DNA of 53,879 nucleotides from an uncultured Bdellovibrionales bacterium (GCA_964643985.1 CAZXUS010000003.1:1-53879), one strand, 5' to 3'. Counted from the first letter of the stretch, positions 6,864 through 16,755 are shown. Translations and numbers: made by a program. The notes: generated by a model from the letters alone, not told the origin.

Positions 6864-7003
6864 TGTCATTCCCGCTCACATCTTGTCATTTCCGCACTCA
6901 ACTTGTCATTCCCGCTTTAAACTTGTCATTCCCGCGGAGGCGGGAATCCAGAATTTTAAGATTATGACTTCTCCCCCTAGATTCCCGCCTCCGCGGGAAT
7001 GAC
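6864..7003. repeat. Family A array: four 20-bp units (TGTCATTCCCGC+N8), a terminal palindrome GTCATTCCCGCGGAGGCGGGAATCCAG (6925-6951), and an inverted copy (6981-7003)
   Basis: Units start at 6864, 6884, 6904 and 6924. The stem-loop is ATTCCCGC-GGAG-GCGGGAAT. The reverse-orientation copy is ATTCCCGCCTCCGCGGGAATGAC. Confidence 0.85.
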
Positions 7004-7104: not shown

Positions 7105-7554
7105 ATGACTAAATTAGCAATTAACAAGAAGGCGCACTTTGATTATGAAATTCTCGAAACCTTCGAGGCTGGTTTAGTATTAAAAGGCTACGAAGTCAAA
7201 TCTGCCAAAAACGGTCATATTTCCCTCAAAGGTGCTTTTGTCACTTTTAGAAGAAACGAACTTTATCTAACCAACGCCCATATCAATCCCTATAAACAAG
7301 CTGGGATTATTGAAGGTTATGACCCCACCAACCCCCGGAAACTGTTAGTCAAAAAAAGTGAACTAAAAAAACTAATCGGAAAAGTTCGAGTTGATGGCTT
7401 GACATTAATACCCATTTCAATGTATAATAAAAAAGGTCTAGTCAAGTTAGAATTTGCGTTAGGCAAAGGAAAAAAACGAACCGATAAACGTCGAACCATT
7501 CAAGCTCGGGAAAATAAAGTTAAAATTTCACGAGCATTCAAAGAAAGAAGATAG
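7105..7554 (+). CDS. smpB: SsrA-binding protein SmpB
   Basis: KKAHFDYEILETFEAGLVLKGYEVKS.. is a typical SmpB N-terminus. 149 aa, next to the tmRNA gene. Confidence 0.95.
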   Translation: MTKLAINKKAHFDYEILETFEAGLVLKGYEVKSAKNGHISLKGAFVTFRRNELYLTNAHINPYKQAGIIEGYDPTNPRKLLVKKSELKKLIGKVRVDGLTLIPISMYNKKGLVKLEFALGKGKKRTDKRRTIQARENKVKISRAFKERR

Positions 7555-7567
7555 AATTTTGAATTTC

Positions 7568-7617
7568 AAATTTTGAATTTTGCTGTGCCTCGCCGTAGCT
7601 TTAGCGAAGGCGGGATT
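7568..7617. repeat. Left arm of a 50-bp inverted repeat flanking ssrA (contains the family B1 core CCTCGCCGTAGCTTTAGCGAAGGCGGG)
   Basis: AAATTTTGAATTTTGCTGTGCCTCGCCGTAGCTTTAGCGAAGGCGGGATT matches the reverse complement of 8404-8453 at 49 of 50 positions. Confidence 0.9.
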
Positions 7618-7791
7618 CAATGTCGAATGAACTAATTTCTTAATTTTTAAATAAAATTTATTTAGAGAATTAAGTCATTAAAAATTGATTAAAAATTCAA
7701 AATTGGAAATTTAAAATTAAGAAAAGCTAATCTTTTTTTAATTTTATTTCCTAAAGATTAACTTTTAATAAAACATTAAACGTGTACCCTC

Positions 7792-8265
7792 GGGGGTGTC
7801 AGGCTTCGACAGGTTAAGTATTTTGAAATTTGCAAGCTGAGTTATATGCCTCATTAAAAGCATATAGGGATTGGCTTTAAGTGTTATTTTGTTTTCAAAA
7901 TTGAAAAGAACATTTAAAGCCAATCCCGAAACCTTATAAGTGCAAACTTATATAACAAAGCAAAAAGTGCGTTAGCATCAGCTTTCACACCCAATTTTGC
8001 TGCTGCCATAGCTTAATATAACCTATGGTCCATCGATTGATCGACTCTCAATAGATCTTATTCGGTGTCAACATTGAGATATAATTAATTTGTTTTCTTT
8101 TGGCAAATTAGTTGAATTCTACAAAAGAGGATTTATTAATTATTTTGTTTGTTTAAAGATTTTTAAATTCTATGGAATTTTATTATTCCTAAAATAAACA
8201 CTCTAAGCTTGTAGACGATTTTAAAATTTTGACACTGGACATGGGTTCAATTCCCATCACCTCCA
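7792..8265 (+). ncRNA. ssrA: tmRNA (SsrA), about 474 nt
   Basis: The 5' end GGGGGUGUCAGGCUUCGACAGG pairs with the 3' end CACCUCC-A. It has a G3:U wobble (alanine identity) and a T-arm GGGUUCAAUUCCC. CCA is not fully encoded. The tag reading frame GCA(7942)..TAA(8016) encodes ANLYNKAKSALASAFTPNFAAAIA. Confidence 0.9.
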
Positions 8266-8403
8266 CAAATTATTTTACTCTCTTAGTAGAGAGTAAAAAA
8301 TTAATTTTTAATTTTTTAATTTTTAATGACTTAATTTTTAATTACGCAAGCTCTGCCTGCGTTCATTGAGACATTGTTTAAAAAATTAAGTAATTCAAAA
8401 TTA

Positions 8404-10165: not shown

Positions 10166-10190
10166 GTCATTCCCGCGGAGGCGGGAATCC
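10166..10190. repeat. Family A palindrome GTCATTCCCGCGGAGGCGGGAATCC, preceded by decayed CCCGCTTT units
   Basis: Exact match to the core at 6925-6949. Degenerate units are visible from about 10110. Confidence 0.85.
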
Positions 10191-10768: not shown

Positions 10769-10859
10769 TCATTCCTACTCGCACTCTCAATGAAGCAAAC
10801 ATTGATAACTTTGTCATTCCCGCTCACATTCTGTCATTCCCGCGGAAGCGGGAATCCAG
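10769..10859. repeat. Family A array (GTCATTCC units) ending in the palindrome GTCATTCCCGCGGAAGCGGGAATCCAG (10833-10859)
   Basis: Same architecture as 6864-6951. The track ORF 10621..10827 overlaps it and is probably spurious. Confidence 0.8.
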
Positions 10860-12928: not shown

Positions 12929-13240
12929 TCAAATATTCAAAGTCTTATCTTTAATTATCTTTTCCAAAACCTCTCTATTATCCTCCTCTCTCACCCTAAT
13001 ATTCCGCTCTTCTCCACACTTTTCACATTTTTGAACCAAAATCCATTCTTGATTTTTCAAAAAAGCGTTCACCGGCTTCATTAATCCGCCACATTCATTA
13101 GCTCGATCTCCCGGATTTATATCAACATGCTTGGAATACAAACAGCTCGGACAATGGTTAGTATAACCATCCCCTTTCACCACCTTCCCACAATTCTCAC
13201 ACCTAAAATCTTCAATCCTCCGCTGAAATTTCTTCCCCAT
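12929..13240 (-). CDS. RNHCP domain-containing protein
   Basis: F-R-C-E-N-C-G..GYTNHCPSCLYSKHVD..GGLM matches the RNHCP signature as I recall it. Confidence 0.6.
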   Translation of the reverse strand: MGKKFQRRIEDFRCENCGKVVKGDGYTNHCPSCLYSKHVDINPGDRANECGGLMKPVNAFLKNQEWILVQKCEKCGEERNIRVREEDNREVLEKIIKDKTLNI

Positions 13241-13250
13241 AAAATCCTAT

Positions 13251-13280
13251 TAATTCTAATTCTAATTCTAATTCTAATTT
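13251..13280. repeat. Hexanucleotide microsatellite (TAATTC) x about 5
   Basis: TAATTC repeats at 13251, 13257, 13263, 13269 and 13275 (last copy TAATTT), 11 nt upstream of the RNHCP gene start on the - strand. Confidence 0.9.
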
Positions 13281-13284
13281 TTAC

Positions 13285-13312
13285 CTCTCCCATACACTGG
13301 AGTATGGGAGAG
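13285..13312. repeat. Family F palindrome CTCTCCCATAC-ACTGGA-GTATGGGAGAG
   Basis: 11-bp arms. The same sequence recurs inside miaB at 37125-37150. A degenerate relative lies at about 13755-13790. Confidence 0.85.
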
Positions 13313-13319
13313 ATACTTT

Positions 13320-13769
13320 TCATTTTTCATCCCTCTTATTTTTATAATTATCCAATAAATTAAATATTAGAAAATGAGCTGGAAATTTTTGCTTCATCGC
13401 TTCCCACTCATTGGTCGGCAAAATTTTTCTCCGTTGTTTTTGATTTTTTGCTTCTTTAAACTCATTCATATATCCACCAAAACCACTAAAAAGCCAACGA
13501 TTGACACTTCCAATTGTGCTATTTCCAACTTTCAGTTTCTTTTGTATGTCAGGATAAGAAAAACCCACCAATAACATTTTAGCAATCTCTATTCTATGCA
13601 TTATCATTATAATTTCCCCAGGAGTCAACAAGTCCCTCAAAAATTTTTCTGCATTTTGCTCTGTTTTTATTCTGGAAATCATTCCACAAAATTCCTTCAG
13701 CATTCTCTTCCTTTTTTGTGGATCAACATCATAAAATCTTTTTCTCATTTTTTCTTCACTACCATACAC
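13320..13769 (-). CDS. TrpR-like / YerC-YecD family DNA-binding protein
   Basis: ..FLRDLLTPGEIIMIMHRIEIAKMLLVGFSYPDIQKKLKVGNSTIGSVNRWL.. resembles the YerC/YecD (Trp repressor-related) family. Confidence 0.6.
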   Translation of the reverse strand: MYGSEEKMRKRFYDVDPQKRKRMLKEFCGMISRIKTEQNAEKFLRDLLTPGEIIMIMHRIEIAKMLLVGFSYPDIQKKLKVGNSTIGSVNRWLFSGFGGYMNEFKEAKNQKQRRKILPTNEWEAMKQKFPAHFLIFNLLDNYKNKRDEK

Positions 13770-13801
13770 TGTAGTATAGTAGTGTCTATTATTTTTATTA
13801 A

Positions 13802-14524
13802 CTAATTTTTATTAACTAAAACTTGGCTTAATTCTTGAACTTTGGTTTCTTTAACGTTTTCTTTGAATTGAGCGTAGCACATTGGACAGGGAGTAATTAG
13901 AGTTTCAGCTTTGGTTTTGGCAACTTGGTCAAAACGGTCTCCTGCAATTCGATTTGATAACTCAGGATTATTGGTTTTTACTCCCCCGCCTGCCCCGCAA
14001 CAATAACTTTTCTCCCGATTCAAATCCATTTCCTTAATTTTAAAACCCACTTTCTCGATGATTTCCCTAGGTTTTTCATAAATACCCAAACCTCGCCCCA
14101 AATGGCAAGGGTCATGATAGGTCGCTAAACCTTTATTTTGACTTTTAAATTTTTTCAAAGTTTTATCCGAGATAATCTCCGTCATATGCAAAACTTCAAT
14201 ATCCCAATCAGCTCCCAAAATTTCTTTGTAGTCTTTTCGCAAAACCAAAGCACAGGCTGGACAATTGGTAATAATTCGGTCGACACTGTGTTCCTTAAAT
14301 ATTTTCAAATTCTTTTCCGCCACTTCTTTAAAAAGTTTCTTCCCTCCGGCGTTTTTAACTGGAGAACCACAACACAACTCTTTATCCGAAAGTTTAATAA
14401 AATCAATCCCCTCTTGTCGCAAAATCTCTTCATAATTAGCTTGAATATCCTTCAACACAAACTTCGTCAAACACCCCGAATAATACAAAGTATTCCCTTT
14501 AAACATTTTTTTGAATATACTCAT
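13802..14524 (-). CDS. (Fe-S)-binding protein with two cysteine-rich CCG domains (LutA/GlcF/HdrB-like)
   Basis: Two CCG motifs are present (..ELCCGSPVKNAGG.. and ..SYCCGAGGGV..). 240 aa. Confidence 0.6.
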   Translation of the reverse strand: MSIFKKMFKGNTLYYSGCLTKFVLKDIQANYEEILRQEGIDFIKLSDKELCCGSPVKNAGGKKLFKEVAEKNLKIFKEHSVDRIITNCPACALVLRKDYKEILGADWDIEVLHMTEIISDKTLKKFKSQNKGLATYHDPCHLGRGLGIYEKPREIIEKVGFKIKEMDLNREKSYCCGAGGGVKTNNPELSNRIAGDRFDQVAKTKAETLITPCPMCYAQFKENVKETKVQELSQVLVNKN

Positions 14525-14591
14525 TTGATAAAATTAACTAATATATACTTTTTTAATTCTACCCCACCTCCTTTTCTTTATCAAATTAAAT

Positions 14592-14620
14592 TTGATTTTT
14601 AAAAATATTTTTGCTAATAT
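14592..14620 (+). promoter_or_regulatory. Near-consensus promoter TTGATT-17-TAATAT in front of the ORF-free region
   Basis: TTGATT at 14592-14597, 17-nt spacer, TAATAT at 14615-14620. Confidence 0.5.
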
Positions 14621-14626
14621 TTAAGT

Positions 14627-15117
14627 CCATGCCAAAGTGCATGCGGGTCTGAAGGATAATGCGAAACAATCCAGGAGTTCTGTGCTATCAACAACAATTA
14701 AGCCAGAAATCGCTCAAAACGCCCACTTACCCCAGAGAACTGAGACTCCAGTAGACAAATCACCAGTCGAGGATAGATATTTCAAGGAGAAATCCTAGAA
14801 ATCTAGTGCTGTATTCCCTCACGCTAACAAACCTGCGAAGATTTTAAATCTTGCTGGTGATTTCCTTTAAAGTCTTAGGCCTTTGAAGATTTAGATCTTT
14901 TTGTTATTATTAGAAAAAGCTTAGAAGCGATGTGGCGCGGATATTAATTTTTCCGCATAGGTTCAACTCCTATACCAATCGGCTAAAATAACAACGTATT
15001 GCGTAGGATAGCTGGAAGGCTTGTGATTTCCCAAGTCGCCCTTGAAATACCAGCCTTGCCTTGTTATAGTGGCGCTAAGCTTTTATGAGGGAGTTCTTAT
15101 CATAGGCTCCCTCTTTT
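14627..15117 (+). ncRNA. Candidate large structured non-coding RNA of unknown class (about 490 nt)
   Basis: No ORF of 60 aa or more in any frame. Visibly more G+C than the flanks. A promoter lies upstream and a terminator at the 3' end. Several long-range complementary 10-mers and nested helices are present (see findings). Confidence 0.5.
15087..15117 (+). terminator. Intrinsic terminator closing the candidate ncRNA
   Basis: GAGGGAG (15087-93), 13-nt loop, CTCCCTC (15107-13), TTTT. Confidence 0.65.
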
Positions 15118-15177
15118 ATTTTGCCAAAAATTACAAAATTTCTTGTCTTATTTTAAAAACTTTTCTAAGATTAGGCT

Positions 15178-16539
15178 ATGAAACTAAATCTTGAAAAAAT
15201 TGCAAAAACTTTACTTCTGACTTTGATTTTTGTTTTGCCTTTTAATTTTCACTATATTTTCAACTTCTCTGCCACTCAAGATCTTTTATTTTTTAAAGAA
15301 AATCTTCAATATTCACTTTATTTTTTTGACCTACTTTTTTTAATAATTTTTCCAATTTGGCTTTTCAAAAAACTTAAAACGCCGAACTTTTTAAAGTCGA
15401 ATTTACTTTTTATTGGGCTAATTGTTTACTTATTGGGAAATTCTTTTTTCATTTCTTCCGACTTCTCCACTTCCTTATATAATTCTTTGCGTCTAATCGA
15501 AGTTCTATTTTTCTTCCTGATTTTCATTGATTTAGCCAAAAACAAAAAGTTTTTCAACCAAACTGTTTATTTAATTTTTCTAGCCGAAGTAATCCAAGCA
15601 ATCCTCGCTCTTTTTCAATTCATTTTTCAAAAATCTCTCGGTTTAAAATTCCTCGGCGAAAGTATTTTGAATCCTCAAACCTTAGGAGTCGCCAAACTGG
15701 AACTTCACGGCGAAAAATTTATTAGAGGGTACGGAACATTTCCTCACCCCAATTTGCTGGGCGCCTTTCTATTTTTAGCTTTAATTTGCGGTCTATCTTT
15801 TATTTTAAAAAATAATTTTAAAATTCCCTTTTCGCTTCCAGACAAATTTAAAAAATTAAATTTAACTCCTAAAATTAAATTTTTAACTGGAAAAATTCAT
15901 TTTCAAGCTGGTTTATTTCTAATCTTAACTGGAATAATTATAACTTTTTCTCGAAGCGTTTGGCTCATAACAGCCTTGTTGGGAACTGCTCTTTTTTTTC
16001 AATTGCTCTTCACCAAGAAATATAGATTTAAATCAGTATTTAAATCAGTATTTCCAATTTTAATTATTTTAATGTTCCTTCTTTTCAGCTTCGCTAAATT
16101 CATTCCAGCCCGGCTCTGTTTCGAAAATTGTCAAGACCAATCTGCCACTCTTCGACAAAATTATTCCCAATTTTCTCAAAAAATTATCGACAATAACTTT
16201 TTGACTGGAATTGGCCCTGGGCAATTCGTTCCCATTTTCAAAAAAATCAATCCTCAAAATTTACCCGACTGGAATCTTCAACCAGTTCATAATATTTATC
16301 TTCTCGCTTGGAGCGAAATTGGATTAATCGGCTTTTTGCTTTTATTTTTCTTTATTCTAAAAAATTCAAGCTTTTCAAAAATCAATTCTCAAAATCAACT
16401 TTTTCTTTTTTTAATCATTGGCTTTTTGCTTCTCGGTTTCTTTGATCACTACTTTTGGACCCTCCCTCAAGGTCAATTCATCTTCTGGCTTTCTCTTGCC
16501 TTATTCACAACTTCGGGTAAAATTAGAGATAGTATGTAG
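15178..16539 (+). CDS. O-antigen ligase family (Wzy_C-like) polytopic membrane protein
   Basis: 453 aa, about 11 hydrophobic segments, ..ITFSRSVWL.. loop motif typical of the family. Confidence 0.6.
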   Translation: MKLNLEKIAKTLLLTLIFVLPFNFHYIFNFSATQDLLFFKENLQYSLYFFDLLFLIIFPIWLFKKLKTPNFLKSNLLFIGLIVYLLGNSFFISSDFSTSLYNSLRLIEVLFFFLIFIDLAKNKKFFNQTVYLIFLAEVIQAILALFQFIFQKSLGLKFLGESILNPQTLGVAKLELHGEKFIRGYGTFPHPNLLGAFLFLALICGLSFILKNNFKIPFSLPDKFKKLNLTPKIKFLTGKIHFQAGLFLILTGIIITFSRSVWLITALLGTALFFQLLFTKKYRFKSVFKSVFPILIILMFLLFSFAKFIPARLCFENCQDQSATLRQNYSQFSQKIIDNNFLTGIGPGQFVPIFKKINPQNLPDWNLQPVHNIYLLAWSEIGLIGFLLLFFFILKNSSFSKINSQNQLFLFLIIGFLLLGFFDHYFWTLPQGQFIFWLSLALFTTSGKIRDSM

Positions 16540-16605: not shown

Positions 16606-16755
16606 GTCATTCCCGACTTGTTCAGAAATCCAAAAAAGGAAGTCTTTAGTTTAAATTTTCTGGATTCCCGCCTCCGCGGGAATGACAGAATTAGAGGCAA
16701 AAATCAAGAAATTTAGAATAACAATATTGTCATTCCCGCGGAGGCGGGAATCCAG
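16606..16755. repeat. Family A cluster: a degenerate unit (16606-16633), an inverted palindrome (16660-16686) and a direct palindrome (16729-16755)
   Basis: CTGGATTCCCGCCTCCGCGGGAATGAC and GTCATTCCCGCGGAGGCGGGAATCCAG face each other 42 bp apart, just upstream of valS. Confidence 0.85.

Follow-up and report, generated by a model that had tools for sequence, protein, structure and literature searches.

A unit at positions 14627-15117 on the + strand of a DNA stretch from an uncultured Bdellovibrionales bacterium (GCA_964643985.1 CAZXUS010000003.1:1-53879) carries, almost certainly, a replica of the L1 stalk (helices H76-H78) of 23S ribosomal RNA (rRNA). All coordinates refer to this whole stretch of 53,879 nucleotides (nt), called here the 54-kb window. 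In the ribosome, the L1 stalk is the piece of rRNA that binds protein uL1 and docks the elbow of the E-site transfer RNA (tRNA). The unit is very probably a real, independent and structured non-coding RNA (ncRNA) gene of an undescribed, lineage-restricted family, and it is proposed, with a probability of about 45%, that its product would be a trans-acting, dispensable, modular rRNA mimic binding uL1 and/or the tRNA elbow. The original prediction for this region had described a multi-domain structured unit of unknown class; its independence, its structure and its lack of open reading frames (ORFs) hold, whereas the unknown class has to be amended, about one sixth of the unit being the 23S L1-stalk replica.

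Comparison with 23S rRNA, using an E. coli-type reference, revealed two collinear matches: 15000-15026 aligned to E. coli positions 2109-2134 and 15034-15057 to 2158-2181, scoring 32 and 33, whereas the best of 30 shuffles reached 24. These are the sole 23S-like matches of the 54-kb window. The identity to 23S is about 50/59 positions, the window reading UGCGUAGGAUAGCUGGAAGGCUUG-UGAUUUCC-CAAGUCGCCCUUGAAAUACCAGCCUU and E. coli UGUGUAGGAUAGGUGGGAGGCUUUGAAG...GGAGCCGACCUUGAAAUACCACCCUU. When a stretch of 106 nt was searched with the Rfam model LSU_rRNA_bacteria, 14988-15067 aligned to model positions 2124-2217 with the H76, H77 and H78 pairing (14.8 bits, E 0.0048), and 19/19 pairs of the copy are canonical. 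H77 stays paired although both of its strands differ from E. coli (GCUGG/CCAGC in place of GGUGG/CCACC), a compensatory change, and the base of H78 is retained with one G-U pair that fits the + strand only. All parts of the L1-stalk module, namely H76-H77-H78 and the loop strands GUAGGAUAG and CUUGAAAUA, were found, arranged as follows.

14988-15067, + strand: 23S rRNA L1-stalk (H76-H78) replica, from the 23S comparison and the Rfam LSU alignment
14988-94/15061-67 (plus 14996/15059), + strand: H76-like stem, an unrelated stem of 7-8 base pairs (bp) replacing H76
15000-11, + strand: first loop strand, UGCGUAGGAUAG; E. coli equivalent UGUGUAGGAUAG
15011-15/15050-54, + strand: H77, GCUGG/CCAGC, a 5-bp helix
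15018-23/15032-37, + strand: shortened H78, GGCUUG/CAAGUC, 6 bp with an 8-nt loop
15038-49, + strand: second loop strand, GCCCUUGAAAUA; E. coli equivalent GACCUUGAAAUA

The two retained loop strands correspond to those that form the tRNA-elbow platform. The nested segments AAGGCT/AGCCTT and ATTTC/GAAAT, previously proposed as helices, are complementary, but they lie inside the stalk copy, where the homologous pairs are those of H77 and H78 listed above. The locus does not hold a bacterial 23S gene (RF02541, ~2.9 kb with domains I-VI, at least 50 bits), the match being local and limited to 80 nt and 14.8 bits. Outside this stalk and the H13 modules of related RNAs described below, nhmmer and shuffle-controlled local alignment detected no similarity of the RNA to 23S, 16S or 5S rRNA above shuffles; a resemblance of the 5' domain to 23S nt 170-240 and to 16S h23, noticed by eye, was not supported by the same analyses.

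Bacteria of the candidate phyla radiation (CPR) have reduced ribosomes, in which uL1, bL9 and bL28 are variably lacking. The 55-nt fragment of 23S rRNA that binds L1 presumably spans the stalk region with H78 truncated. This fragment constitutes a specific L1-binding site (PMC2175363). In some CPR 23S rRNAs H78 is short or lost, and long insertions are frequent in CPR 23S genes (10.1101/2022.01.07.475337). A stand-alone stalk was also encountered on a 42.8-kb viral contig (L110, positions 1-100; IMG/VR UViG_3300000032_000059), the end of which consists of ~90 nt of a 23S L1 stalk of enterobacterial type, with a long hairpin and sequence other than rRNA before it; it is most likely a contig-end chimera and was not used as evidence. 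Pattern scans of viral contigs returned nothing, or true 23S.

The unit occupies a gap of 653 nt (14525-15177) between a CCG-domain gene (13802-14524, - strand) and a Wzy_C gene (15178-16539, + strand), hereafter the CCG and Wzy genes. The gap had been predicted to lack any ORF of at least 60 amino acids (aa) and to be enriched in G+C, and both points were borne out: the longest ORFs inside it have 53 aa (14637-14798) and 50 aa (15042-15194), and the G+C content is 0.36-0.41 over 14600-15100, as compared to 0.326 in the window and 0.24-0.31 in most other spacers. A sequence check also placed each of the previously listed motifs, hairpins included, where it had been reported. The limits of the unit are given by the following elements.

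14556-14584, - strand: promoter of the divergent CCG gene, upstream limit of the RNA unit (TTGATA-17-TAGAAT; 10/12 in the promoter scan)
14592-14620, + strand: RNA promoter (-35 TTGATT at 14592-97, 17-nt spacer, extended -10 TG at 14612-13, -10 TAATAT at 14615-20)
near 14627, + strand: RNA start, predicted from the promoter
15087-15122, + strand: intrinsic terminator, function predicted from sequence and minimum free energy (MFE) folding (GAGGGAGU.CU-UAUCAU-AG.GCUCCCUC, then UUUUAUUUU)
15143-15171, + strand: the Wzy gene's own promoter, outside the RNA and downstream limit of its unit (TTGTCT-17-TAAGAT, 6 nt before the ATG at 15178)

The promoter TTGATT-17-TAATAT had been called near-consensus, which was too strong for 8/12 consensus positions; its position and spacing stand, and it is conserved in the homologous RNAs of two related loci (handles of loci begin with L), which read TTGCCT-17-TAACAT in L017 and TTGTCT-17-TAATAT in L018, with the common string TATTTTTG(C/T)TAA(T/C)AT. 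The consensus promoter scan did not list it because an 8/12 match falls under its cut-off. The proposed terminator, GAGGGAG (15087-93) and CTCCCTC (15107-13) followed by TTTT, was recovered as well; in the MFE its stem has 10 bp, interrupted by a single bulge, and a loop of 6 nt, with UUUUAUUUU after it, and the terminator scan rule missed the 15087-15113 hairpin on account of the loop or bulge. The RNAs of relatives likewise finish in a stem and a U run. On the other side, the block TTCTACC...CTTTATCAA at the CCG-gene promoter is kept in all syntenic loci. The RNA is a self-contained inserted unit lying between the promoters of the CCG and Wzy genes, and these signals predict a transcript of ~490 nt.

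The + strand is indicated by the comparison of folding with shuffles (z = -3.33, against -1.20 for the - strand) and by G-U pairs in H78 of the stalk copy and in helices of the relatives, which are compatible with the + strand only. The region is 100% identical in 3 independent assemblies (the window, L005 and L006, the latter two from other samples) and is therefore not an assembly artefact. The tblastx comparison with all syntenic loci matched only shared promoter DNA and gave no protein-level similarity across the RNA body, so that a decayed protein gene, one of the alternatives raised by the original prediction, is disfavoured. The unit shows the properties looked for in an independent ncRNA gene: a promoter and a terminator of its own, a non-coding sequence, and homologues that vary less than neutral sites and carry compensatory changes, the covariation being statistically weak with 3 sequences.

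The other alternative raised at the outset, a long 5' leader of the downstream gene, is disfavoured by the position of the Wzy promoter, which lies past the RNA terminator and is kept in all loci compared: a cTTGCTTt-N17-TA(G/A)AAT element ends 6-7 nt before the Wzy ATG in 12/12 syntenic loci, whether the RNA is present or absent. The spacing of 6-7 nt between the -10 hexamer and the ATG implies that the Wzy mRNA is leaderless across this CPR group. Since Wzy has its own conserved leaderless promoter, the RNA is not the Wzy leader.

The RNA is predicted to fold as follows.

14627-14765, + strand: conserved 5' domain, with hairpin H1, a long H2/H3 arm and H4
14628-32/14639-43, + strand: H1 hairpin helix of the 5' domain
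14654-59/14727-32 and 14661-63/14720-22, + strand: helices H2a and H2b of the long arm
14678-82/14704-08 and 14684-86/14701-03, + strand: helices H3a and H3b, distal part of the long arm
14735-37/14746-48, + strand: helix of the short hairpin H4
14757-14863, + strand: domain 2, closed by a perfect 10-bp helix (AAAUCACCAG/CUGGUGAUUU) present in the MFE
14771-14797, + strand: domain-2 hairpin AGGAU-N17-AUCCU, whose loop bears UAUUUCAAGG (14778-87)
14915-15084, + strand: 3' domain, closed by a perfect 10-bp helix (AAAAGCUUAG/CUAAGCUUUU) obtained by MFE folding both of the full RNA and of this domain by itself
14930-14983, + strand: three-way junction in the MFE (stem GAUgUGG/CCAAUC, hairpin GCGGA-N10-UCCGC and the T-arm-like hairpin)
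14957-73, + strand: T-arm-like hairpin AUAGG-UUCAACU-CCUAU, with a T-loop-type loop

An A+U-rich linker joins domain 2 to the 3' domain, in which the three-way junction adjoins the L1-stalk replica. The 10-nt complementary pairs 14757-66/14854-63 and 14915-24/15075-84, already noted in the original prediction, are exact, and a third exact pair was found in addition (14778-87/15040-49); at least three perfect 10-mer inverted repeats were reached in 1/500 dinucleotide shuffles. This third pair brings UAUUUCAAGG of domain 2 into exact complementarity with the stalk-copy loop strand CCUUGAAAUA, and AUCCUA (14792-97) is complementary to UAGGAU of the other loop strand. Through this complementarity, 14778-87 could fold back on the replica and mask it, or could serve as a pairing site for the authentic stalk of 23S rRNA. 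The hairpin described earlier as a tRNA T-arm look-alike followed by ACCA is present, but it does not lead to a free tRNA-like 3' end, because CCAAUC pairs with GAUgUGG in the MFE and closes the three-way junction; neither ARAGORN nor Rfam made a tRNA call.

Searches with Rfam 15 covariance models, at the gathering score over the window and at E<=10 over the 700-nt region 14500-15200, agreed with the earlier view that no known RNA family is involved: there was no match to the region at the gathering score and no meaningful one at E<=10, the best (E 0.86) and all others being chance-level microRNA and small-RNA matches. In the whole window only the transfer-messenger RNA (tmRNA, 7792-8268) and tRNA-His were matched, and the relatives L007, L010, L011, L013 and L017 yielded nothing. 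RNase P, T-box, tRNA, 6S, SRP, tmRNA, introns, riboswitches, ribosomal-protein leaders, GOLLD, ROOL, OLE, HEARO and raiA were discarded in this way, with no Rfam match in the region. ARAGORN found no tRNA at the RNA locus, and likeness to tRNA is limited to a weak match of the T-arm hairpin and one preceding hairpin (tRNA-Sec variable arm and T arm at the three-way junction; 13.3 bits, E 2.2), the D arm being absent and the ACCA base-paired. As for a T-box, RF00230 gave no match at E<=10, an independent promoter separates the terminator from the next gene, and the L1-type platform alone is present. An L1-type ribosomal-protein leader does not fit the neighbours, which are CCG-domain, RNHCP, TrpR-like, Wzy_C and valyl-tRNA synthetase (ValRS) genes; no rplK or rplA was found among the scanned ORFs of the 54-kb window. 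A mobile element was also rejected, the boundaries having no terminal repeats, the context being housekeeping genes, the RNA being single-copy in the window and phage records being unmatched.

The gene order RNHCP - CCG - [gap] - Wzy_C - ValRS is kept in relatives, and the Wzy homologues are labelled Moranbacteria or Patescibacteria. At the same place and in the same orientation, the RNA is carried by four lineages of Moranbacteria-like CPR bacteria (the window, L017, L018-21 and L007-10), the gap measuring about 580 nt in L018-21 and L017 and 1193 nt in L007-10. In L105, L108, L011/L023, L103, L109 and L026 the gap is 130-350 nt long, A+T-rich and without room for the RNA. A search of genome contigs with the CCG protein gave distant, non-syntenic matches only, and the loci added by a metagenome search with the Wzy alignment were mostly distant. 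In L013 (1310-2742) the RNA site is occupied by an HD-domain gene and a 138-aa membrane-protein ORF, which indicates that the CCG-Wzy spacer is a hot spot of gain and loss. The minus-strand cluster at 12929-14524 and its counterparts in relatives comprise RNHCP zinc-ribbon, Trp-repressor-like (lineage-dependent) and CCG-domain genes, and adjoin the IF3-L35-L20 operon.

Homology of the RNA is evident at its 5' side. In blastn, window 14533-14786 was 63-66% identical to L017 and L018, the shared part being the promoter and a ~140-nt 5' domain alignable with MAFFT; the 5' edge of domain 2, CCAG(U/A)C(G/C)AGG(A/G)U, is also kept in these two, the remainder of domain 2 is unalignable, and the RNA downstream of the 5' ~140 nt is swapped or hypervariable among relatives. 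A covariance model derived from L017 and L018 alone matched, besides those two, only the window site in a search of 153 kb (13.8 bits, E 0.08). The window and L017/L018 agree at 40-46% of the four-fold degenerate sites in the flanking genes, 29% being expected at random; L017 and L018 agree at 57-69% of such sites, and their RNAs are 78% identical. The 5' domain is thus kept above a near-saturated neutral level, which points to constraint and argues against a decaying remnant. The expectation that helices would covary in homologues was borne out at 7 pair positions of H1-H3, which are double-changed and still paired, but not by the formal count, which was non-significant; in the helix-by-helix comparison of H1-H3, three cells are mispaired in the window sequence. 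The tree built from the CCG protein unites L007, L017 and L018 in one clade and groups the window with two RNA-less lineages, the Wzy tree being less resolved; this placement and the patchy distribution require several losses or transfer between relatives.

The RNAs of L017, L018 and L007 have no stalk and display instead AGUAGCGGCGAGCGAA, the loop of 23S H13 (E. coli 241-256). L017 and L018 match E. coli at 16/16 positions and L007 at 15/16, with scores above every shuffle; the stems closing the loop differ by lineage among the three, and the motif was found nowhere else in ~600 kb of fetched loci. The tip of H13 sits in the 50S E-site pocket together with H21 and H88, and bL35 contacts it (PMC13372681). 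No complement to the H13 loop equivalent to 14778-87 was found in the relatives' RNAs. In L007 (1808-3000; also in L008-L010) the site contains ~800 nt of ORF-free sequence, with the copied H13 loop at 2237-2253; covariation is seen between its 3' closing helix, CCACCGAG/CUCGGUGG, and the counterpart CCACCGGU/ACCGGUGG in L017 and L018. An ORF for a membrane protein of 65 aa, absent from the gene calls and equipped with the ribosome-binding site AAGGAGG, is located at 2715-2912 of L007.

These features suggest an RNA with a conserved 5' scaffold followed by variable domains, the last of which would display a copy of one 50S E-site element: the L1 stalk (H76-H78) in this genome and the H13 loop in the L007/L017/L018 clade. 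The stalk copy might capture free uL1 through its rRNA-like determinants, the tRNA elbow, or both, and the RNA would then act as a ribosome decoy, with uL1 or tRNA titrated away from, or bound in parallel with, the ribosome. In an alternative conformer, the domain-2 segment 14778-87 may mask the key loop strand of the stalk copy. Transcription of the unit, the capture of uL1 or tRNA and any regulatory effect are predicted here from the sequence. A wider version, which appears rather doubtful, would make these RNAs a new class of trans-acting "ribosomal E-site mimics", with a scaffold for interchangeable replicas (L1 stalk, H13 tip) that capture deacylated tRNA, ribosomal proteins variably lost in CPR bacteria (uL1, bL35/bL28), E-site factors or antibiotics and are switched by the antisense segment 14778-87.

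Several points weigh against the proposed rRNA mimic. The stalk-like secondary structure has -12.3 kcal/mol compared to -19.9 for the MFE of the segment, and the stalk segment may be a very recent rRNA copy that selection has yet to shape. The RNA is absent from at least seven related lineages, so that any function must be dispensable. The formal covariation count, made on a model-fitted alignment, was underpowered (3 sequences, with 2 double changes in H2), and L007 escaped the 5'-domain model, its link to the others being limited to the surroundings of the H13 hairpin and to the 3' closing helix. Finally, a trans-acting ribosomal-protein sponge is not known from bacteria.

Among other explanations, a large structured RNA whose role is unrelated to the ribosome is unlikely. 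The stalk copy would then be a folding module whose double T-loop platform docks the T-loop hairpin 14957-73 intramolecularly, in the manner of a tetraloop and its receptor, to give a compact 3' domain. The T-arm-like three-way junction and the stalk copy are indeed neighbouring arms of one domain closed by 10 bp, relatives swap the module as expected of interchangeable structural parts, and an elbow-docking motif recurs in RNase P and T-box stem I (PMC4810234, PMC4919913). However, the likeness to 23S is one of sequence (about 50/59), includes the H77/H78 junction read by uL1 and goes beyond the motif level, the hairpin beside the T arm lacks a loop G able to pair with C56 in the manner of a tRNA elbow, and no homologue has retained both modules together. 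It is improbable that the locus is what is left of a decaying rRNA gene or rRNA insertion, with lengths from 0 to 1.1 kb reflecting progressive deletion. Such a remnant would suit the patchy and length-variable content of one site (130-350 nt when empty, 400-500 nt, ~800 nt), the rRNA-derived segments and the long insertions often found in CPR 23S genes (10.1101/2022.01.07.475337); yet beyond the two short modules nothing resembles 23S, 16S or 5S rRNA above shuffles with the E. coli-type 23S reference, the modules are complete units with their own closing helices and are non-collinear with 23S, conservation of the promoter and of the 5' domain, which has compensatory changes, clearly exceeds that of four-fold sites, and the H13 loop is invariant in three lineages while its stem covaries.

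Control in cis of Wzy-ValRS is quite improbable. A leader or attenuator, for example a T-box-like sensor gripping the elbow of tRNA-Val and controlling the terminator 15087-15117, would agree with the orientation of the RNA, which is that of Wzy-ValRS, with the terminator directly after the 3' domain, with ValRS starting 20-25 nt past Wzy in relatives and with the elbow-binding motif that T-box stem I and the L1 stalk share. The conserved Wzy promoter nevertheless lies downstream of the terminator with or without the RNA, no T-box match at E<=10, T-box sequence or antiterminator was found, relatives lack the L1 module, and seven lineages have the same genes without such an RNA. The least credible of the alternatives is an antisense regulator in which UAUUUCAAGG (14778-87) pairs with the real 23S stalk strand CCUUGAAAUA, for example during assembly, the replica being a built-in competitor. 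The exact 10-nt complementarity, that of AUCCUA (14792-97) to the other loop strand, and a target sequence identical in E. coli 23S 2164-2173 speak for it; but the 10-mer could be due simply to the presence of a target copy in the RNA itself, with which it would form an alternative fold within the molecule, the relatives have no equivalent complement of the H13 loop, and in the mature stalk the loop strand is buried by tertiary contacts.

With the 23S L1 stalk (H76-H78, E. coli nt ~2093-2196) the RNA has in common the loop strands, H77, the base of H78 and an H76-like stem; it differs in being 490 nt long with its own promoter and terminator rather than part of a 2.9-kb rRNA, in an H78 cut to 6 bp with an 8-nt loop, and in an H76 of a sequence unrelated to that of E. 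coli. The L1 autoregulatory mRNA sites, in the bacterial L11-operon leader and the Methanococcus L1-operon mRNA, are likewise non-ribosomal copies of the uL1 motif at the H77/H78 junction (PMC2175363). They are minimal mimics of 36-49 nt within the mRNA of the regulated operon and are devoid of the two loop strands, whereas the RNA is trans-encoded and retains the complete site as found in rRNA, with the platform for the tRNA elbow. The double T-loop modules of T-box stem I and of the RNase P S-domain likewise provide non-ribosomal RNAs with a stalk-type elbow platform; they resemble the stalk in three-dimensional motif only and not in sequence, and the RNA has no specifier, antiterminator, P4 or catalytic core. 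GOLLD, ROOL, OLE, raiA and HEARO are several hundred nt long, multi-domain and patchy, with conserved and variable halves and T-loop or tRNA-like elements nearby. The RNA is like them in size, multi-domain fold, patchiness, conserved/variable halves and such nearby elements, and unlike them in having no Rfam match and no phage or mobile context; an rRNA replica is not known from any of them. Nor is a free-standing bacterial RNA with a near-complete L1-stalk copy known, rRNA mimicry being known only as short cis sites in ribosomal-protein mRNAs.

If the proposed role is correct, rRNA mimicry would extend from cis-acting mRNA sites to a free-standing RNA with a full stalk replica, the second E-site element on the same scaffold in the sister RNAs would make these trans-acting modular decoys, and a competitor for uL1 or the tRNA elbow would bear on the balance of ribosome components in CPR bacteria. 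If the segment is instead a recently captured rRNA fragment, it would show the recruitment of rRNA pieces into new RNA genes. In addition, the stalk copy, with its ~80 nt, provides a small natural construct in which the L1 stalk can be studied away from the ribosome.

Other elements were observed in the window. A REP-like palindrome, ATTCCCGCGGAGGCGGGAAT, occurs in 6 intergenic copies against 0.03 expected.

6928-6947, 6981-7000, 10169-10188, 10836-10855, 16664-16683 and 16732-16751: REP-like copies, in intergenic spacers

Between Wzy and ValRS, two of them are arranged as an inverted repeat of 34 nt, which explains the mirrored short 'FPRRRESR' ORFs there. After rplT, the segment 9878-10284 is ORF-free, has 39% G+C and is predicted to be very strongly structured whichever strand is folded (z -6.0 and -5.1); it includes one REP-like copy, a nearly perfect hairpin of ~20 bp and the terminator of rplT, and had no Rfam match at the gathering score. 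At 7105-8268, smpB is directly followed by a long tmRNA (477 nt, 32% G+C, tag ANLYNKAKSALASAFTPNFAAAIA) with large insertions as compared to the Rfam consensus.

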